A stretch of DNA of 20,000 bases from an uncultured virus (IMG/VR IMGVR_UViG_3300009873_000002) (IMGVR_UViG_3300009873_000002:108846-128845), one strand, 5' to 3'. Positions 13,251 through 19,135 are shown, numbered from the stretch's first letter. Notes: a model not told the origin generated them from the sequence alone. Numbers and translations: made by a program.

Positions 13251-15197
13251 TTAGAATACTGTTGGGATTATTAGACCTGGATCAACAATAACCCCGGTCG
13301 GAGTGAATACGTCAGTTACAAAAGCACTATTCGGTTTGCGTGTACGTACATTTTGGAAGCCTGATGTTACGGGAACACTTCCTGCTACAAGCTCTCCAAG
13401 AGCGCCTGCGCTGTCAGCCTCACAATTGTACATATAGATGTTATTACCAAGTTGGAACAAGTCAATCAATGCGATTGTACTATCCACTCGTGCATTATAC
13501 AATCTGCAGTCTTTTAAGTACAGCACATTGTTAGGTTGGTCAGGTAAACCTACATAACCAACACCTTGAACAATTACATAAGGATAAGGACCTGTAGTAC
13601 CGTTGCTCGAAATCAAACCTTGTTCAACCATAACCGGGCAAGTACTGCTCGATTGGCGAATAGCTTCTCGGTTACTTGACACGGATCCTTTGACATACAC
13701 ACGACCAACATCACCAACTACACCATCAGTTTGGATACCGGCATGATCATTTCCTGTGATGTTACCGTAGATCTTTACATTTCCACCGCGTACCGCAACT
13801 GTGTAGTGTTCTACACCAGCTGCTGGAACACCTGTTATAATCATATTACCTCTTACGGTAATATTAGAGGTTATAGGTGTAGTATTACCACAGTTCAATA
13901 CATCACGCTCATAGTTCGATGTACTGTTACCGTTCATGGTGATCTCAGGACATTCGATGTAAAGATTACCTTGGAACACTGCGGCTCCACTGTTTCTCAC
14001 AAAGAATATTCTTCGGTTAGAAATAATGTAGTCACGCACAAATAACTTCACATTACACAATCCACGGAATGTTGACATGAAGTTGAATCCGGCAAATGGA
14101 GTAGCATTGATCTTGTTACCCTTGATTGTAACGTTTGCAGTAGTTACAGTAGGCGCAATAGAGAATGCATAAAATGATGTTGTTATATGATCAAACTCGA
14201 AGTTGATAGTTGATCCTCCAGTGATGTTCAATACACCTATGAAACCATTTACAACAAGACTACCGGTAACTTTACAAGTTACGGATCCACCACCATCCTG
14301 GAATCCTCCAGAGATAATAGTAGCACCTGGTTCGAAATAGAAATCAACAAGGTTTTTGAAAGTCAATGTAGGCGGTGAGTATTGTCCTCTGCGTACATAG
14401 ATCAAAGCAGGTGTACCTGCAGGGGCTGCAGCAAGCGCTGCTTGTATAGTTTGATAAGGACGATCAAGTCTGTTAGGAAGACCGGTACCATCGTTACCAA
14501 ATGCAGCATCTACATAGTAGTCGCTGGCTGGTAAACTGAATGTCGGAGCTGCCGGTGATGTGCACAATCTGGTACCGTCTGGGAAGTGTATACAACCATC
14601 ACAGATATCAGTGATCTCTTGGCGTTCGTAGATAAATCCACCACCACCCCCTGCTTGCCAATCGATGAATGAAATAAGGTAGTACTTATCATTCACCGTA
14701 TCATGCATCACAAGACTGTTACCCGGAAGAGATCCAAAGGATCCGAGGTTATTTATTACCTCATTGTATAACGTGTCATAAGTCAGATTCTTTACCTGAC
14801 TTAAGTCACTTGTATCAAATGACCATTCGGTGTTTGCGGGCGAACCTGCATTTGCAGAGCTTTCCACGAGAGGGTTATACAACCACTGGCTTAATCCACG
14901 AGTGATAGCAACATCTTTATCGATGTTGTCATAAACAGTGGCGCCAGTACCGGTTGGATGATTGAAGATAAATTTCTCACTCAGGGTAAAACTCTTCTGC
15001 AGGTTTACCGAGCATTGAGATACACCCATAGCAGCAATGAAGTCTTCGACAAGCATAGCCATCTCGCGATATTTGGTGCTGTCTCGCTTACTATTTATGC
15101 TGCGACCTACAAGAATGAGGTCTTTATTTTTGATTAACTCAGAGGCTTTAAGAAGACCGTACTGAGCGACCATTGCGTTAAAATTTACTATATCCAT
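13251..15197 (-). CDS. Tail fibre/spike-like protein with right-handed beta-helix (pectin-lyase-like) domain
   Basis: YYVDAAFGNDGTG...PYQTIQAALAA...IYVRRGQY cap motif followed by N/G/I/T-rich beta-helix coils. Confidence 0.7.
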   Translation of the reverse strand: MDIVNFNAMVAQYGLLKASELIKNKDLILVGRSINSKRDSTKYREMAMLVEDFIAAMGVSQCSVNLQKSFTLSEKFIFNHPTGTGATVYDNIDKDVAITRGLSQWLYNPLVESSANAGSPANTEWSFDTSDLSQVKNLTYDTLYNEVINNLGSFGSLPGNSLVMHDTVNDKYYLISFIDWQAGGGGGFIYERQEITDICDGCIHFPDGTRLCTSPAAPTFSLPASDYYVDAAFGNDGTGLPNRLDRPYQTIQAALAAAPAGTPALIYVRRGQYSPPTLTFKNLVDFYFEPGATIISGGFQDGGGSVTCKVTGSLVVNGFIGVLNITGGSTINFEFDHITTSFYAFSIAPTVTTANVTIKGNKINATPFAGFNFMSTFRGLCNVKLFVRDYIISNRRIFFVRNSGAAVFQGNLYIECPEITMNGNSTSNYERDVLNCGNTTPITSNITVRGNMIITGVPAAGVEHYTVAVRGGNVKIYGNITGNDHAGIQTDGVVGDVGRVYVKGSVSSNREAIRQSSSTCPVMVEQGLISSNGTTGPYPYVIVQGVGYVGLPDQPNNVLYLKDCRLYNARVDSTIALIDLFQLGNNIYMYNCEADSAGALGELVAGSVPVTSGFQNVRTRKPNSAFVTDVFTPTGVIVDPGLIIPTVF

Positions 15198-15221
15198 CTT
15201 CGAAGGTATTAGGTGTACAAC

Positions 15222-15253
15222 CTAATATACGAAAATGTTACGATACCTCCAAA
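15222..15253 (-). promoter_or_regulatory. Putative promoter of the tail block (TTTG-N20-TATATTAG)
   Basis: One mismatch to the Bacteroidota -7 consensus, with a correctly spaced -33 TTTG; overlapped by an 8-bp inverted repeat (15207-15227). Confidence 0.45.
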
Positions 15254-15259
15254 TTTTTG

Positions 15260-15331
15260 TTGCCCGAGCTGGATTCGAACCAACCTTCCTTGAACCAAAA
15301 TCAAGTGTCCTGCCAGATAGACGATCGGGCA
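15260..15331 (-). tRNA. tRNA-Gln(UUG)
   Basis: Cloverleaf; anticodon arm CTTGA-TT-TTG-GT-TCAAG; U1-A72. Confidence 0.95.
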
Positions 15332-15336
15332 TTAAG

Positions 15337-15409
15337 AGGTCCCGGAGGGATTCAAACCCCCAACCTTTTGATCCGTATTCAAATGCTCATTCAGTTGAGC
15401 TACGGGACC
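15337..15409 (-). tRNA. tRNA-Arg(ACG)
   Basis: GGTCCCG/CGGGACC acceptor stem; TTTGA-AT-ACG-GA-TCAAA (unusual A32). Confidence 0.9.
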
Positions 15410-15421
15410 TGGTAATCTTTG

Positions 15422-15496
15422 GGTGGCCGGTGGGCTTCGAACCCACAAATCCGAGAACCACAATCTCGTGAGTCTACCCAATTCCTCTACGACCAC
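15422..15496 (-). tRNA. tRNA-His(GUG)
   Basis: CGAGA-TT-GTG-GT-TCTCG; C73; genomic -1 base is T, not G. Confidence 0.93.
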
Positions 15497-15498
15497 AG

Positions 15499-15572
15499 AG
15501 CCCAAGGAGGGAATCGAACCCCCGACCCTCTGTTTACAAAACAGTAGCTCTAACCTGCTGAGCTACTTGGGC
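15499..15572 (-). tRNA. tRNA-Thr(UGU)
   Basis: GCCCAAG/CTTGGGC; ACTGT-TT-TGT-AA-ACAGA. Confidence 0.95.
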
Positions 15573-15580
15573 TTAATCAG

Positions 15581-15655
15581 TACTCCGGACGGGATTTGAA
15601 CCCGTGATCTTCAGGATGAAAACCTGATGTCCTGGACCAGCTAGACGACCGGAGC
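15581..15655 (-). tRNA. tRNA-Glu(UUC)
   Basis: TCAGG-TT-TTC-AT-CCTGA. Confidence 0.95.
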
Positions 15656-15663
15656 AAAACCGG

Positions 15664-15714
15664 TTGATAGGGCGGACCTGGTACTATATCCGCTTTTATC
15701 AGGCATTCCTATCA
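15664..15714 (-). ncRNA. Small structured RNA (tRNA minihelix-like / pseudoknot-capable)
   Basis: TGATAGG/CCTATCA 7-bp stem stacked on a GCGGA/TCCGC 5-bp stem; CCTG/CAGG cross-pairing possible. Confidence 0.4.
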
Positions 15715-15718
15715 TCAG

Positions 15719-15792
15719 TAGCGGGGGTGCGACTCGAACGCACGACCTTTGGGTTATGAGCCCAACGAGCTGACCAACTGCTCTACCCCGCC
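15719..15792 (-). tRNA. tRNA-Met(CAU), initiator-like
   Basis: TTGGG-CT-CAT-AA-CCCAA (three G-C pairs), A11-U24, G1.U72 wobble. Confidence 0.9.
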
Positions 15793-15800
15793 ATTACCTG

Positions 15801-15874
15801 TGGATCCTACCGGTTTCGAACCTGTTACCTTCGCATTATGAGTGCGCTGCTCTAACCAATTGAGCTAAGGATCC
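15801..15874 (-). tRNA. tRNA-Ile2(CAU) (lysidine type; elongator Met not excluded)
   Basis: GCGCA-CT-CAT-AA-TGCGA; Ile2-like body, A73; the leader of this operon contains an ATA codon. Confidence 0.75.
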
Positions 15875-15879
15875 AGTTG

Positions 15880-15952
15880 TACCCTCGGTAGGACTCGAAC
15901 CTACAACCTTAAGCTTAGAAGTCTCCTGCTCTTCCAATTGAGCTACGAGGGC
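15880..15952 (-). tRNA. tRNA-Arg(UCU) with weakened anticodon stem
   Basis: A20 Arg identity element; GGAGA-CT-TCT-AA-GCTTA (G27xA43 and A31xG39 mismatches). Confidence 0.85.
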
Positions 15953-15955
15953 TTG

Positions 15956-16026
15956 TTCCCCCACCGAGAATCGAACTCAGGTCAATAGATTAAAAGTCTA
16001 CGGCTTTACCACTAAGCTATGAGGGA
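15956..16026 (-). tRNA. tRNA-Lys(UUU)
   Basis: GTAGA-CT-TTT-AA-TCTAT; U1-A72; 4-nt variable loop. Confidence 0.93.
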
Positions 16027-16034
16027 ATGAAGAA

Positions 16035-16100
16035 TCATGACGAACGTTTTCGTCTGCTCTTTATTCTATCCCATATCAATAGTACCATTGCCATTTTCAT
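16035..16100 (-). CDS. Putative 21-aa micro-ORF MKMAMVLLIWDRIKSRRKRSS
   Basis: Fills the Val-Lys tRNA spacer; A-rich sequence before the ATG. Confidence 0.35.
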   Translation of the reverse strand: MKMAMVLLIWDRIKSRRKRSS

Positions 16101-16108
16101 TTTTGTTG

Positions 16109-16183
16109 TAGGAACAGAGAGATTCGAACTCCCGGCCCTCTCCTTGTAAGGGAGATGCTCTGAACCAGCTGAGCTATGTTCCT
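16109..16183 (-). tRNA. tRNA-Val(UAC)
   Basis: TCTCC-CT-TAC-AA-GGAGA. Confidence 0.95.
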
Positions 16184-16186
16184 ATT

Positions 16187-16264
16187 TGGTCGACACACAT
16201 GGATTTGAACCACGGACCCCCACATTATCAGTGTGGTACTCTAACCAAGCTGAGCTATGTGTCG
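16187..16264 (-). tRNA. tRNA-Ile(GAU)
   Basis: CCACA-CT-GAT-AA-TGTGG; encoded ACCA end. Confidence 0.95.
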
Positions 16265-16270
16265 ATTTTG

Positions 16271-16343
16271 CGTACTGGGTTGGGTTCGAACCAACGTACT
16301 CTTGATTAACAGTCAAGTGCTGAACCAGCTCAGCTACCAGTAC
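16271..16343 (-). tRNA. tRNA-Asn(GUU)
   Basis: CTTGA-CT-GTT-AA-TCAAG; G73; 5' 14 nt overlap the end of the HNH ORF. Confidence 0.95.
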
Positions 16344-16668
16344 TTTTTGCATGTTCCTCTCTATGACAGTTTGCACATAGAAGTTCACATTTGTCAATTT
16401 CCTCTTTAACCTTTTCCCAACTCCGTGTGTATCCCTTGTCACTAATACTAAAATCCTTACCTCCTTTATGATGGAAATCAAGAGCATCCACGCATTTATC
16501 ATATCCACACCTCTCACATTTACCACCCTTATAAGCTACAGCCATTAGCTTAATCTTCTTCCTACGCTTAGCTACAGCTTCGACCATGCACTTTTTACAT
16601 CTCCAACAGTTTTGATCCTTTCTGAGAGAGTGTTCTTGTAAACCATGCTTACGACATTCCTTTTCCAT
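16330..16668 (-). CDS. HNH endonuclease (Zn-finger type, putative homing endonuclease)
   Basis: CKKC, CERC..ALDFHH...CELLCANCHREEH; start at ATG 16668 (MEKECRKHG). Confidence 0.88.
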   Translation of the reverse strand: MEKECRKHGLQEHSLRKDQNCWRCKKCMVEAVAKRRKKIKLMAVAYKGGKCERCGYDKCVDALDFHHKGGKDFSISDKGYTRSWEKVKEEIDKCELLCANCHREEHAKSTGS

Positions 16669-16672
16669 TCTA

Positions 16673-16703
16673 CAAAGGTATAACAATTTCTTGTTATACC
16701 AAT
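16673..16703 (-). promoter_or_regulatory. Internal promoter for HNH (ATTG-N19-TACCTTTG) within a perfect 10-bp inverted repeat
   Basis: TACCTTTG at 16673-16680, 4 nt before the ATG; GGTATAACAA-GAAA-TTGTTATACC at 16677-16700. Confidence 0.65.
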
Positions 16704-16706
16704 CTT

Positions 16707-16811
16707 TGGGGCCGAGTAGGGTTCTTAACCCACATCCATCGTCTTTAAGTCAACGACCGTTTTCACCTCCAGTGTCAGCACGCCACACCGGATCTTTTAA
16801 ACTATCGGCCA
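16707..16811 (-). ncRNA. tRNA-like RNA with a hairpin inserted in the D-loop
   Basis: GGCCGA/TCGGCC acceptor followed by CCA; TA; GTTT/AAAC D-stem enclosing TCCGGTGT/ACACTGGA; GTCGTT/GACGAT stem with GACTTAAA loop; GTGGG/CCTAC T-like stem. Confidence 0.65.
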
Positions 16812-16817
16812 ATCCTG

Positions 16818-16891
16818 CGGTCTATATGGGACTCGAACCCATGATCTCCTCCGTGACAGGGAGGCGTCCACTCCAACTGGACTGATAGACC
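16818..16891 (-). tRNA. tRNA-Asp(GUC)
   Basis: CCTCC-CT-GTC-AC-GGAGG; G73; C8 instead of U8. Confidence 0.93.
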
Positions 16892-16903
16892 TTCAATTGC
16901 TTC

Positions 16904-17029
16904 GAGAGACACTCTTGCAAAACACAGCTTTTTCAAACATCGTCCTCGGCTTCTAAGGACTGTGGGCTTTAACCACTCTGTGTTCATCATACCATCTCAG
17001 CCAACAGTACTGCTGTCACTGTATCTCTC
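16904..17029 (-). ncRNA. Candidate multi-branched structured RNA
   Basis: Closing stem GAGAGATAC/GTGTCTCTC; inner AACACAG/CTGTGTT enclosing GTGG/CCAC and GTCCT/AGGAC hairpins. Confidence 0.45.
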
Positions 17030-17059
17030 AGGCGCCCAAGTGATAGTTGGGTACCGGTG

Positions 17060-17133
17060 AGCGAGTGGTGAGACTCGAACTCACAACACCCTGCTTGGAA
17101 GGCAGGTACTCTAGCCAATTGAGCTACACTCGC
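17060..17133 (-). tRNA. tRNA-Gly(UCC)
   Basis: CCTGC-CT-TCC-AA-GCAGG; U73. Confidence 0.95.
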
Positions 17134-17175
17134 TGGTCGAGCGGATTTTAACGAGTACCGCCCATACTCTCGTTG

Positions 17176-17250
17176 TGGAATGGCTGGGATTTGAACCCAG
17201 GACCTTCTGCTTGCAAAGCAGCTGCTCGACCAGACCGAGCTCCGCACCCC
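17176..17250 (-). tRNA. tRNA-Ala(UGC), atypical
   Basis: G3.U70, A73; GCTGC-TT-TGC-AA-GCAGA; extra base at the acceptor-D junction and no U8/A14. Confidence 0.8.
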
Positions 17251-17304
17251 TAGTGACCCTTTTCTTTAATTTTCAGTTTGTGGCGGTCAATCCGTATCTG
17301 CTAG

Positions 17305-17377
17305 TCTAAGTGGCAGGACTCGAACCTGCGGCCTGAACATCCCAAATGTCCCGCGCTACCAACTGCGCTACACCTAG
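17305..17377 (-). tRNA. tRNA-Pro(UGG)
   Basis: C1-G72; GGACA-TT-TGG-GA-TGTTC; begins immediately after the terminator U-tract. Confidence 0.95.
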
Positions 17378-17413
17378 AAAATAAAAAGGCCCCCGGTGTT
17401 AGCGGAGGCCTTT
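17378..17413 (-). terminator. Attenuator terminator of tRNA operon A
   Basis: AAAGGCCTCCG-CTAACAC-CGGGGGCC-TTTTTATTTT between the leader ORF and tRNA-Pro. Confidence 0.88.
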
Positions 17414-17438
17414 GGTATCATTGGGTTGGTGTTGTCTA

Positions 17439-17543
17439 TTATCCTTTGATGAATATACCCAAAATAGCGGCCTCCAGAGATAGGCGATCCACGCCTTTCT
17501 CCATCGTATTAATCGGTTGCGCTATATGTTGTAGTTGTCTCAT
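17439..17543 (-). CDS. Leader peptide A (34 aa) MRQLQHIAQPINTMEKGVDRLSLEAAILGIFIKG
   Basis: Starts 8 nt after a TATATTTG -7 box; codons 2 and 6-20 cover the 16 codon boxes of the 16 downstream tRNAs; contains the antiterminator GGAGGCC. Confidence 0.85.
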   Translation of the reverse strand: MRQLQHIAQPINTMEKGVDRLSLEAAILGIFIKG

Positions 17544-17551
17544 CTGCTCTG

Positions 17552-17582
17552 CAAATATACATAGAATCTTTATACGTGCAAC
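17552..17582 (-). promoter_or_regulatory. Bacteroidota sigma-A promoter of tRNA operon A
   Basis: GTTG-N19-TATATTTG. Confidence 0.8.
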
Positions 17583-17620
17583 ATTACATGTAAACTTTTT
17601 TTACTTTTCTATACATGTAG

Positions 17621-17694
17621 TACTCCCGATGGGATTCGAACCCATACTGGACGGATTTTAAGTCCGTTGACTCTGCCGGTTGGCCTACGGGAGT
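17621..17694 (-). tRNA. tRNA-Leu(UAA), short variable loop
   Basis: ACGGA-CT-TAA-AA-TCCGT; 5-nt variable region; A73. Confidence 0.92.
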
Positions 17695-17750
17695 TTGTGT
17701 ATCATTAATCTTCAATTATGAGACACAAAATAATTTGCGTCTCATCTGTG

Positions 17751-17825
17751 TACCCCTACTCGGACTCGAACCGAGAAAACTTCTGATCCTAAGTCAGACG
17801 ACTTTACCAATTTGCCCATAGGGGT
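17751..17825 (-). tRNA. tRNA-Leu(UAG), short variable loop
   Basis: TCTGA-CT-TAG-GA-TCAGA; 6-nt variable region; A73. Confidence 0.92.
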
Positions 17826-17830
17826 ATGAG

Positions 17831-17916
17831 CGGAGAACAGTGGCCCTGATCCACAATCGGTGTTAGCCGATCGAGCAGCTTAGCAGGCTGTCCCTACCCA
17901 GGTAGGTTTGCTCTCC
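17831..17916 (-). tRNA. tRNA-Ser(GCU), 8/4 fold
   Basis: GGAGAGCA/TGTTCTCC 8-bp acceptor, GTGG/CCAC 4-bp T-stem, 5-bp D-stem, long variable arm, G73. Confidence 0.85.
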
Positions 17917-17921
17917 TTGAG

Positions 17922-17993
17922 AGGTACCGGCAGGATTTGAACCCGCGTAATCGAGTTTTGCAAACTGATGACTAACCACTCATCCACGGTACC
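17922..17993 (-). tRNA. tRNA-Cys(GCA)
   Basis: U73; TCAGT-TT-GCA-AA-ACT(C)GA with a bulged C. Confidence 0.88.
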
Positions 17994-18048
17994 TTATTTA
18001 AGTTTCCGGCCGTAAAGTTAAATAGCCGAATTCTTATTTTACTTTCTG

Positions 18049-18119
18049 CACAGAGTGTAGGGATCGAACCCACCCGGCAAGGTTTTGGAGGCCCGCCCGC
18101 TGCCATCGCTGTACTCTGT
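18049..18119 (-). tRNA. tRNA-Trp(CCA), atypical
   Basis: Perfect ACAGAGT/ACTCTGT acceptor and T-arm, CT-CCA-AA loop, G73; weak D-arm and C31xA39. Confidence 0.72.
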
Positions 18120-18125
18120 GTGTTG

Positions 18126-18216
18126 CGGAAAGCGGAGGACCCGACCCCCAGTCCAGTTACCCAGACACCCAGTTTTCAAGACTGGTCGCGGCTCCAATGC
18201 CACTGCTTCACTTTCC
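18126..18216 (-). tRNA. tRNA-Ser(UGA), 8/4 fold
   Basis: GGAAAGTG/CGCTTTCC 8-bp acceptor, GGGG/CCTC T-stem, CCAGT-CT-TGA-AA-ACTGG, long variable arm, G73. Confidence 0.85.
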
Positions 18217-18224
18217 ATTCTATG

Positions 18225-18310
18225 TGGGACCCGGTGGACTCGAACCACTCCCCATTGCTGAGACCGAATTTACAGTCCGGCTGCCGTATCCAAGACGACT
18301 TTCAGTTCCC
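18225..18310 (-). tRNA. tRNA-Tyr(GUA), probable 8/4 fold
   Basis: GGGAACTG/CGGGTCCC acceptor (one mismatch), GTGG-TTCGAGT-CCAC, 5-bp D-stem, GCCGGA-CT-GTA-AA-TTCGGT, variable arm CTCA-GCAA-TGGG, A73. Confidence 0.87.
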
Positions 18311-18317
18311 AAGTTTG

Positions 18318-18389
18318 TGAGACCACGTGGAATCGAACCACGGCTGTCGGCTCTTCAGGCCGATGCTCTACCAACTGAGCTATAGTCCC
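18318..18389 (-). tRNA. tRNA-Phe(GAA)
   Basis: TCGGC-CT-GAA-GA-GCCGA (G37); starts 2 nt after the terminator U-tract. Confidence 0.93.
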
Positions 18390-18391
18390 GG

Positions 18392-18429
18392 AAAACAAAA
18401 ACCCCGGTATCATTGCTGACCCGGGGCTT
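18392..18429 (-). terminator. Attenuator terminator of tRNA operon B
   Basis: AAGCCCCGGGTCA-GCAA-TGATACCGGGGTTTTTGTTTT (GNRA-capped hairpin plus U-tract). Confidence 0.88.
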
Positions 18430-18462
18430 CTGTGTATGCAAGAGGTAACTTCTTGTACTCAG

Positions 18463-18534
18463 CTATGCGCGTTCCTGGGCAGCTCCTGGATGGAGTAACC
18501 AAAACGAACAATAACTGAGTAATAATGCTTTCAT
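18463..18534 (-). CDS. Leader peptide B (23 aa) MKALLLSYCSFWLLHPGAAQERA
   Basis: ATG 4 nt after the TATCTTTG -7 box (near-leaderless); codons 5-12 match the 8 downstream tRNAs one-for-one. Confidence 0.88.
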   Translation of the reverse strand: MKALLLSYCSFWLLHPGAAQERA

Positions 18535-18538
18535 GTGA

Positions 18539-18570
18539 CAAAGATAATGCATGCAATCGGATCCACCAAA
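18539..18570 (-). promoter_or_regulatory. Bacteroidota sigma-A promoter of tRNA operon B
   Basis: Consensus TTTG-N20-TATCTTTG. Confidence 0.85.
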
Positions 18571-18623
18571 GGTTTTCTCAACTTTTTTCATGGTGGTGTC
18601 AGCAATAACCAGTATATTATAAT

Positions 18624-18932
18624 ATGAAGATTCAAGAAATAGCAAACGATCCCGGGACCTATATCTTCCACTGTCCGGGCTGTGGTATGTTACACCAGGT
18701 GCCGACCAAGAGAGCCGGTGGTCCAAACTGGTCGTTCAATGGGAGTATGCAACGGCCGACCTTTAGTCCAAGCTTGTTGATCCGGTTCCCGCATTTCGAT
18801 GGAAGTAAGGATGTCAATTTAGTTTGTCACAGTTTCGTAAAAGATGGGAACATTCAATATTTGAGTGACTCCAGTCATGAACTGGCCGGACATACTGTAG
18901 AGATTCCGGAAGTAGAGACTTTCCTGAACTAA
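18624..18932 (+). CDS. DUF6527-like small metal-binding protein
   Basis: FHCPGCG..H, WSFNGS..RPTFSPSLL and CHSFVKDGNIQYLSDS.H.LAG.TV motifs. Confidence 0.75.
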   Translation: MKIQEIANDPGTYIFHCPGCGMLHQVPTKRAGGPNWSFNGSMQRPTFSPSLLIRFPHFDGSKDVNLVCHSFVKDGNIQYLSDSSHELAGHTVEIPEVETFLN

Positions 18933-19135
18933 CGCTTCTCAAGACTTTCAAGCTTGGCGTCAACGCGGCCTCTCTGGTAAGCATCATCTACCAAGTGTTT
19001 CTGATAATCCTCTGTGAGGCGGATACCATGGTCGCGCAATTCCTTGTACATATTCAACGCCTCTTTATATCGAGCGTCACTTCGCTCATCCCGGATCTGA
19101 TTCTCCCGCTCAACATTGTGCTCGATCTCCTCCAT
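18929..19135 (-). CDS. Hypothetical protein
   Basis: 68-aa charged helical ORF converging on 18624..18932 with a 4-nt overlap. Confidence 0.55.
   Translation of the reverse strand: MEEIEHNVERENQIRDERSDARYKEALNMYKELRDHGIRLTEDYQKHLVDDAYQRGRVDAKLESLEKR

Follow-up and report, generated by a model that had tools for sequence, protein, structure and literature searches.

A candidate ribosome-mediated transcription attenuator, with one sensor codon per tRNA, in front of an eight-gene phage tRNA operon

We analyzed a 20,000-nucleotide stretch of DNA from an uncultured virus (IMG/VR IMGVR_UViG_3300009873_000002, 108846-128845; hereafter the window), which is the final 20 kb of a 128,845-bp record bounded by direct terminal repeats, and focused on a short element on its minus strand (18570 to 18392, in window positions) that lies directly 5' of eight transfer RNA (tRNA) genes. 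All features described below are on the minus strand of the window unless stated otherwise. The tRNA genes open an array that runs from 18389 to 15259 and contains 22 ARAGORN and 20 Rfam calls. The eight genes, which we call operon B (17620-18389), are those for tRNA-Phe(GAA) (18389-18317), tRNA-Tyr(GUA) (18310-18224), tRNA-Ser(UGA) (18216-18125), a tRNA-Trp(CCA)-like element (18120-18049), tRNA-Cys(GCA) (17993-17921), a tRNA-Ser(GCU)-like element (~17916-17830), tRNA-Leu(UAG) (17825-17750), and tRNA-Leu(UAA) (17694-17620). ARAGORN finds six of the eight (Phe, Tyr, Ser-UGA, Cys, Leu-UAG, and Leu-UAA) at default settings, and the Trp and Ser(GCU) genes both form cloverleaves at relaxed settings. 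The Trp-like gene has an 8-nucleotide anticodon loop (CUCCAAAA) and a weak D-arm, and its relaxed ARAGORN label reads Trp or Leu (ccaa); in the Ser(GCU)-like gene, a loop of 4 nucleotides caps the 5-bp D-stem, and the T-loop is without the TTC motif. In the three orthologous contigs described below, ARAGORN at -ps90, which is looser than default, called Trp(cca) at the same position in all three and Ser(gct) in two. Further, a divergent contig in run X2 differs at 17889 and 17877, which, by our mapping, changes an A-U pair of the Ser(GCU) anticodon stem to U-A. The amino acids of operon B (Phe, Leu, Ser, Tyr, Cys, and Trp) are exactly those with UNN codons, with a second Leu and a second Ser isoacceptor in addition; tRNAs of this type, with A36, usually require i6A37-type modification in bacteria. 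We also note a perfect 12-bp hairpin without a U-run (17714-17745, -16.3 kcal/mol) between tRNA-Leu(UAG) and tRNA-Leu(UAA) and a second hairpin, with ACATGTA arms, 3' of tRNA-Leu(UAA).

The element begins with a putative promoter, in which TTTG (18567-18570, -33-like) lies 20 nucleotides 5' of TATCTTTG (18539-18546, -7-like), which in turn ends 4 nucleotides before an ATG at 18534. The spacing fits the Bacteroidota -33/-7 promoter consensus, which we take to be TTTG-N19-21-TAnnTTTG. The pattern TA[TC]CTTTG-N4-ATG occurs six times in the genome, where we estimate that about 0.2 would be expected by chance; five of these open reading frames (ORFs) are 100-247 amino acids long, and the sixth is the short ORF considered here. 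Because the promoter-like motif stands 4 nucleotides before the ATG, the sequence suggests a leaderless or near-leaderless mRNA. We infer a Bacteroidota host because the large terminase (TerL) shares 24-27% identity with its counterparts in crAss-like, Bacteroides, Flavobacterium, and Cellulophaga phages and because Shine-Dalgarno motifs are scarce 5' of the long ORFs of the genome, each such motif preceding at most 6 of 98. A sigma-70-type sequence, TTGCTA-18-TATAAT (18645-18616), was the sole hit of a promoter scan and was not adopted, given that the genome shows no Shine-Dalgarno usage and has TAnnTTTG-type starts. An in-frame ATG at 18591 would read identical sensor codons in the same frame, also if the sigma-70-type promoter were the one used.

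The ORF, leader B (18463-18534), has 23 codons and a stop and encodes MKALLLSYCSFWLLHPGAAQERA. Its codons are ATG (18534) AAA GCA TTA TTA CTC AGT TAT TGT TCG TTT TGG TTA CTC CAT CCA GGA GCT GCC CAG GAA CGC GCA TAG, with the stop at 18465-18463. Codons 5-12 (18522-18499; UUA CUC AGU UAU UGU UCG UUU UGG) are each read by one of the eight downstream tRNAs, and codons 4-14 (18525-18493) form an uninterrupted 11-codon run for the amino acids of the operon. A first-pass annotation of this DNA had matched codons 5-12 to the eight tRNAs, and both its coordinates and its codons proved exact, with two of the tRNAs non-canonical. We scanned every eight-codon window in all six frames of the 128.8-kb genome with a generous wobble table (n = 257,644). 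The full set of eight tRNAs was covered in three windows, all overlapping at the leader (18522, 18519, and 18516), and seven-tRNA windows numbered 16 in the genome, 2 of which flank the leader locus. Local shuffling of the genome (200 times) left 0.075 full-set windows on average, with at least one in 6.5% of the shuffles. The sole full-set locus of the genome is on the correct strand, between the promoter-like motif and a terminator and directly 5' of the operon. As a separate observation, the order of the sensor codons is roughly opposite to that of the genes: the first three codons are the last three genes reversed, and 23 of 28 pairs are discordant (a post hoc count made by hand), a pattern not seen in the second leader of the window.

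The leader RNA (18534-18397) is predicted to fold with -52.6 kcal/mol (z = -5.67), a value that none of 200 shuffles reaches. Four segments can be distinguished in the minimum free energy (MFE) structures. Segment 1 (18492-18521), which overlaps the sensor codons, is the 5' strand of a 1:2 protector hairpin, and segment 2 (18456-18486) is its 3' strand, which also holds the stop codon UAG and the 5' strand of an antiterminator (18483-18469). The protector consists of the helices 18521-18511/18466-18456 (11 bp with one G-U), 18509-18508/18468-18467, 18506-18501/18475-18470, 18500-18498/18480-18478, and 18495-18492/18486-18483. Segment 3 (18415-18427, core CCCCGG at 18426-18421) is the terminator 5' arm and can pair either with 18483-18469, as antiterminator, or with the terminator 3' arm. 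The latter (UGAU at 18412-18409 and CCGGGG at 18407-18402) forms segment 4 (18392-18412) together with the U-run TTTTTGTTTT (18401-18392), and tRNA-Phe begins 3 nucleotides past this U-run. Without a ribosome, the 1:2 hairpin and the terminator form in the MFE structure. When the sensor is masked and the terminator 3' arm is not yet made, the MFE structure is the antiterminator, in which 18483-18469 pairs with 18427-18415 and encloses a CUG/GUA/CAAGA hairpin; a small hairpin common to both states (18439-18455, CAAGA-N7-UCUUG) is here extended by pairing of 18462-18456 with 18436-18430. In isolation, the elements have -28.3 (1:2), -19.4 (antiterminator, 18483-18415), and -20.3 kcal/mol (terminator, 18431-18397). 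These structures recover the protector of the first-pass annotation (18521-18511/18466-18456 and an extension), with further pairing of 18509-18492 with 18486-18467; its antiterminator (18483-18474/18425-18415, with a supporting hairpin) returned as the MFE structure with the sensor masked, except that the partner strand was found at 18424-18415. A simple terminator scan with a loop limit of 3-8 nucleotides missed the terminator at 18431-18397, which we attribute to its 13-nucleotide interior. No cis-regulatory leader family of Rfam (Trp_leader, His_leader, Leu_leader, Thr_leader, etc.) and no T-box matched, either at gathering thresholds in the window or at E<=1 in 15000-19000.

To follow the switch during transcription, we used a kinetic model in which the transcript is cut before the terminator 3' arm and the free energy that holds the terminator 5' arm (ΔΔG) is calculated for each ribosome footprint. 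For leader B, ΔΔG was -1.1 kcal/mol without a ribosome; -5.4, -5.7, -7.4, -9.0, -7.1, -8.8, and -8.4 kcal/mol with a ribosome at codons 7-13, respectively; and -1.1 to -3.0 kcal/mol at codons 14-24. In this truncated transcript, the antiterminator is thus freed only by a ribosome on codons ~6-13. The effective window always comprised 7-8 codons within codons 5-15 across 10 footprint variants, and a reach of +17 nucleotides gave exactly codons 5-12. A ribosome at the stop codon, where UAG lies within segment 2, covers 18480-18453 and yields -3.0 kcal/mol. The experimentally established Escherichia coli trpL leader, put through the same procedure as positive control, gave -8.5 and -10.1 kcal/mol with a ribosome on one or the other of its two Trp codons, -0.2 with it at the stop, and -1.0 when no ribosome was present, i.e. 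the same profile shape as leader B. With the switch score defined as the sensor value minus the stronger of the no-ribosome and post-sensor values, leader B scored -5.28, whereas 150 dinucleotide shuffles had a mean of +0.17 (standard deviation 1.23) and a minimum of -3.35, so that none reached it. The earlier proposal that a ribosome on the sensor codons frees the antiterminator therefore holds in this model, as it does for trpL.

Orthologs were sought with a 26-nucleotide stretch of the window's tRNA-Tyr, which led to three viral contigs whose TerL is 62-63% identical to that of the window. Their tRNA genes have the same order (Phe Tyr Ser Trp Cys (Ser) Leu Leu, then Pro through Gln), and 5' of Phe they retain the promoter-like motif, as TATCTTTG-N4-ATG, followed by the ORF MRQSLLFSYCWLSPKGGPGSY. 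The codons of this ORF (UCG UUA CUC UUU AGU UAU UGC UGG UUA UCG) contain the complete eight-codon set in all three contigs, in permuted order; the leaders align as homologous sequences with in-frame codon indels, and the Phe and Ser(UCG) codons are relocated. Identity to the window is 39 of 75 ORF alignment columns (52%) and 29 of 65 columns from the ORF end to the U-run. In each 6-kb ortholog locus (12,006 windows each), full-set windows occur at the leader only. Folded independently, the ortholog leaders again form the 1:2 hairpin and the terminator. With a ribosome at codons 3-12, their ΔΔG is -4.3 to -8.5 kcal/mol, compared with -1.0/-1.4 when no ribosome is present and -0.1 to -3.5 at codon 14 and beyond. 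Retention of the set while its order changes is what is expected under selection for one codon per tRNA, unlike selection on the peptide.

A degenerate pattern of the eight sensor codons in the order of the window had no match in viral contigs, and the orthologs, found later, arrange these codons differently. When the region was compared by BLAST with 50,697 phage records, all matches were of tRNA size; the neighbouring 102- and 648-amino acid proteins led to two loci each, with no tRNAs nearby, and TerL relatives to 80 loci, none with an array within 10 kb. Among contigs of four DNA sequencing runs that cover the region, we found 18521 A>G in three runs and 18553 G>A, in the promoter spacer, in one. 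The former changes codon 5 from UUA to UCA, still a codon of the operon, and windows matching eight of eight remain at codons 6-13 and 7-14. Leader variation across the four runs is at strain level only and too little for covariation analysis.

A second leader lies within the window, between operon B and the next tRNA operon. Leader A (17385-17549) consists of TATATTTG-N8-ATG, an ORF at 17543-17439 that encodes MRQLQHIAQPINTMEKGVDR..., and a hairpin with U-run (17413-17385), after which the tRNAs Pro through Gln follow. Its first 20 codons cover 16 of the 16 tRNAs of this operon; such windows occur nowhere else in the genome, and none of 40 shuffles reaches 16. The count depends on reading 17248-17176 as tRNA-Ala(UGC), as the Rfam alignment does (40.7 bits, with two non-standard acceptor pairs); ARAGORN instead calls an 89-nucleotide Gln(CUG) at 17175-17263 and Gln(ctg) or Arg(ccg) at the ortholog position. 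The orthologs' leader A, MRNIQHTAQMNIVRKGDEP..., again covers 16 of 16, with the order permuted. Together, leaders A and B partition all 20 amino acids. The ribosome-position profile of leader A is less clean, as its antiterminator forms by default in the truncated transcript.

Leaders of this kind also occur in other phages. Sequence identical to part of the tRNA-Phe in the window was found on a 30.7-kb fragment that carries 28 tRNAs and whose first block (Phe Phe Ser Ser Ser Asn Asn His Thr Lys x5) is preceded by MRTTKSHNHFNSSTFSNKS... and a terminator. This leader has 17 consecutive codons from the six amino acids of its block; the longest other run in the locus has 10, and none of 200 shuffles reaches 17. 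Before the second block stands another leader, with W, P, V, M, G, A, D, Y, R, I, and T. A scan for a U-run motif 2-32 nucleotides from a tRNA D-arm motif, which is by design biased toward terminators that precede tRNAs, returned 10 loci, 8 with a clearly matched leader, 1 with a weak match (L117), and 1 with none (L122). The eight matched leaders fall into five distinct families. The sequences thus point to five or more additional leader families, on contigs of unrelated phages, in which the leader follows the tRNA set of its own locus. When eight independent leaders were paired with eight tRNA sets in an exact permutation test that used unedited ARAGORN calls and whole ORFs, only 2 of 40,320 pairings equalled or exceeded the true one (p = 5e-5). 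The ribosome-position effect recurs in the leaders of other phages (with terminator arms chosen by hand for L115 and L120), and the designs vary: some have no protector hairpin, and in two (leader 1 of G014 and L117) the antiterminator is the default without a ribosome. Metagenome relatives of one leader family keep the sensor and, by our reading of the alignment, show compensatory changes in the terminator and antiterminator stems. Two further observations concern the starts of such leaders. The matched leaders of L116, L118, and L123 begin 6-7 nucleotides past a TTGAC-N17-TATAAT promoter, so that they appear leaderless, in what looks like a different host of sigma-70 type. In one family, a tRNA-like element with an odd or interrupted anticodon (labelled '???' by ARAGORN) lies just 5' of the promoter of the first leader (L109, 3168-3254; L110, 2908-2994) and is conserved at the homologous spot in L121 and L125-L131.

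Overall, we consider it probable that the element is a ribosome-mediated (leader-peptide) transcription attenuator that gates the eight-gene tRNA operon. As modelled, transcription would start at or just 5' of the AUG at 18534, and a ribosome would translate the 23-codon leader as RNA polymerase approaches the terminator. If all eight sensor codons are decoded fast, the ribosome would reach the stop inside segment 2 and cover the antiterminator strand, whereupon the terminator hairpin and U-run would form and transcription would end 3-8 nucleotides before tRNA-Phe. If charged cognate tRNA is scarce at any sensor codon, the slow ribosome would hold segment 1, segment 2 would pair with the terminator 5' arm, and the polymerase would read into all eight tRNA genes. 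In the absence of translation, 1:2 and 3:4 would form, with termination as the outcome. The element would thereby act as an OR gate with eight inputs, subject to negative feedback since the molecules it senses are those that the operon produces. The ORF, the match between its codons and the tRNAs, the alternative structures, their dependence on ribosome position, and the conservation of this property come directly from sequence and computation. From these we infer that the ORF is translated, where the promoter and the start site lie, that transcription terminates in vivo, and what the regulatory outcome is.

Several observations weigh against this reading. Two of the eight tRNAs, Trp and Ser(GCU), are non-canonical and appear at relaxed thresholds only; the Trp element scores 20.8 bits on the tRNA-clan model of Rfam, below gathering, and the Ser(GCU) element is unmatched by Rfam. 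Decoding of CUC by Leu(UAG) requires a U34:C wobble. Leader B alone shows no significant rare-codon bias (P = 0.19); leader A does (P = 0.0009), as do the two leaders taken jointly (P = 0.0008). Only 45% of the residues of the whole ORF are amino acids of the operon, which ranks leader B's own set second among the eight sets of the permutation test; we attribute the low share to the 3' half of the ORF, which carries structure instead of sensor codons. Leader B is without a Shine-Dalgarno sequence, so that its start is placed by the promoter-like motif (although such sequences are rare genome-wide), and the Bacteroidota host is putative. Stalls at codons 5 and 6 are weak under the default footprint (-1.4 and -2.9 kcal/mol). 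In a 266-kb phage with 22 scattered tRNAs (G013), no leader-like ORF with terminator precedes the tRNA groups. This phage is one of 13 long records to which the tRNA model was applied (11 reached via TerL and 2 via the 648-amino acid neighbour); the other 12 carry 0-1 tRNA (11 with none and 1 with one). Finally, at equilibrium, the probability of the terminator is 0.998-0.999 at all ribosome positions (full leader folded with ribosome masks), and the model therefore needs kinetic control. The same applies to trpL, whose terminator is likewise dominant at equilibrium (0.905-0.998), and we dropped equilibrium folding with ribosome masks as a test for this reason. A terminator that stays dominant with the sensor masked, which the first-pass annotation had named as speaking against the switch, is thus formally what equilibrium folding gives; as trpL gives it too, it does not discriminate.

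We considered four other explanations. First, the same structures could respond to another signal, in a translation-independent switch worked by a protein antiterminator or by a T-box-type contact between tRNA and RNA, with the ORF incidental. RNA switches that sense tRNA do exist, as T-boxes show, and translation of the leader ORF is itself predicted, for an ORF that lacks a Shine-Dalgarno sequence. However, eight adjacent in-frame codons, whose set is conserved under codon indels, are sensible only if read in frame, the effective ribosome window coincides with the codon run, and neither the T-box nor any other cis-regulatory model of Rfam matches at E<=1; we regard this explanation as improbable. 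Second, leader translation could matter for an output other than termination, e.g. a stalled ribosome could shield the RNA against decay or Rho, or set the timing of tRNA processing. Termination at the U-run is a prediction, and in the two leaders noted above the antiterminator is the default without a ribosome; yet a canonical G+C hairpin with a U-run stands beside the first tRNA in the window and in all other leaders examined, and compensatory changes keep the terminator stems in the related leader family whose alignment we read. There is, in our estimate, little chance that this is the correct account. Third, the element could be a constitutive leaky terminator or insulator, or a set of 5'-leader processing signals, with an ORF and codon match that stem from chance or local T-richness. 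The amino acids of operon B have UNN codons, so that a U-rich stretch raises the odds of a match, and full-set windows do turn up somewhere in the shuffled genomes at the rate given above. Such an origin is nevertheless very unlikely, as the single genomic occurrence falls exactly between promoter and terminator, the second leader matches all 16 of its tRNAs, the orthologs keep both properties, the cross-phage permutation is significant, and no shuffle of 150 yields the switch. Fourth, that the ORF encodes a small functional hydrophobic peptide (e.g. a membrane peptide) whose gene the terminator merely ends can be practically dismissed: KALLLSYCSFWLL is indeed hydrophobic, but residue order differs in the orthologs and the C-terminal half is unrelated (LSPKGGPGSY versus LLHPGAAQERA), leaders of other phages, whose composition follows the tRNA set, have polar or charged residues instead (TTKSHNHFNSSTFSNKS and FDFAFEFAAEAD), and a terminator 3 nucleotides before a promoterless tRNA operon would silence that operon.

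Taken as a leader-peptide attenuator, the element can be compared with known systems, beginning with the trp attenuator of E. coli (trpL; Rfam Trp_leader). Both have a short leader ORF, control codons in segment 1, the 1:2, 2:3, and 3:4 hairpins, an intrinsic terminator, and a stop codon at which a ribosome that has finished the leader blocks segment 2; they also share the in-silico ribosome-position profile and the terminator dominance at equilibrium. They differ in that the phage leader gates tRNA genes rather than genes of amino acid biosynthesis, relies on eight single codons, all different, where trpL has tandem codons for one amino acid, and is phage-encoded, without a Shine-Dalgarno sequence and probably leaderless; it would sense the products of its own operon, and it has no sequence or Rfam similarity to trpL. 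In the ilvGMEDA (Ile/Leu/Val) and thrL (Thr/Ile) leaders, one leader senses several aminoacyl-tRNAs, and any stall gives read-through. The phage leader is likewise multivalent, with read-through upon any stall in the model, but those leaders repeat codons for two to three amino acids, whereas leader B has one codon for each of eight tRNAs (six amino acids), the neighbouring leader A covers 16 tRNAs in 20 codons, and the phage targets are tRNA genes. Ribosome-mediated attenuation is textbook biology for amino acid operons, and it extends to the translation apparatus: the pheM-pheST leader-peptide attenuator controls aminoacyl-tRNA synthetase genes, and T-boxes bind uncharged tRNA without a ribosome. 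A leader-peptide attenuator of an aminoacyl-tRNA synthetase gene has also been described in the hisS leader of bacilli (PMC2965389). In these cases, too, components of the translation apparatus are regulated by tRNA charging; their targets are proteins, however, and neither type is known to control tRNA genes. The same attenuator survey does not, in the portions available, mention tRNA genes (PMC2965389), and the sole mention of a tRNA operon in the accessible part of another paper is unrelated to leader-peptide attenuation (PMC3082878). Phage tRNA arrays have been seen as compensation for codon usage or as replacements for host tRNAs cut by defence nucleases (see PMC12409363); this literature treats the same class of cargo and concerns why phages carry tRNAs. 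In our literature search, which left subscription journals outside, we found no account of leader-peptide attenuation of tRNA genes, of a dedicated sensor for phage tRNA transcription, or of a sensor in which each of many tRNAs is represented by exactly one codon. As modelled, the element has the structural features of a trp-type attenuator and belongs to no described family; it differs from known attenuators in the gating of tRNA genes and in the logic of one sensor codon per tRNA.

Besides the array, the minus strand of the window carries genes for the portal, large terminase, exonuclease, and endolysin. Within the array, an HNH endonuclease gene (16330-16686) lies between the Asp and Asn tRNAs; it starts from a TACCTTTG-N4-ATG of its own, and the 5' end of tRNA-Asn overlaps with it. 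The 28-tRNA fragment likewise has protein-coding genes among its tRNAs. Outside the window and far from the array, ARAGORN called three more tRNAs on the plus strand (Ile-gat, Ile-aat, and Gln-ttg; genome C1:11336-11520 and 14372-14443).

A broader proposal is possible, which we put forward tentatively. Each tRNA block of phages with large arrays may stand behind a mini-gene with one codon per tRNA, a modular multi-input OR gate that reads the decoding capacity of the host in real time, so that the block would be on only when some tRNA is limiting (e.g. through host anticodon nucleases or shut-off) and would be turned off by its own products, with the sensor rewritten by codon-level indels as the content and order of the block change. 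If this holds, tRNA supply, not amino acid supply, would be the regulated quantity, and these would be the first leader-peptide attenuators known for non-coding RNA genes. The conserved set in permuted order may serve as an unusually clean signature for finding such elements genome-wide, and the compact natural design, an 8- or 16-input OR gate in ~140 nucleotides, could be of use for reporters of tRNA availability. The proposed feedback loop is one in which a non-coding RNA product would be measured through translation, and the element may link phage tRNA arrays to host defences that deplete tRNAs. When and why phages express tRNAs of their own has long been debated; if the element works as modelled, it would give a direct and testable answer, namely that they do so on demand, when decoding of the codons that these tRNAs read slows.

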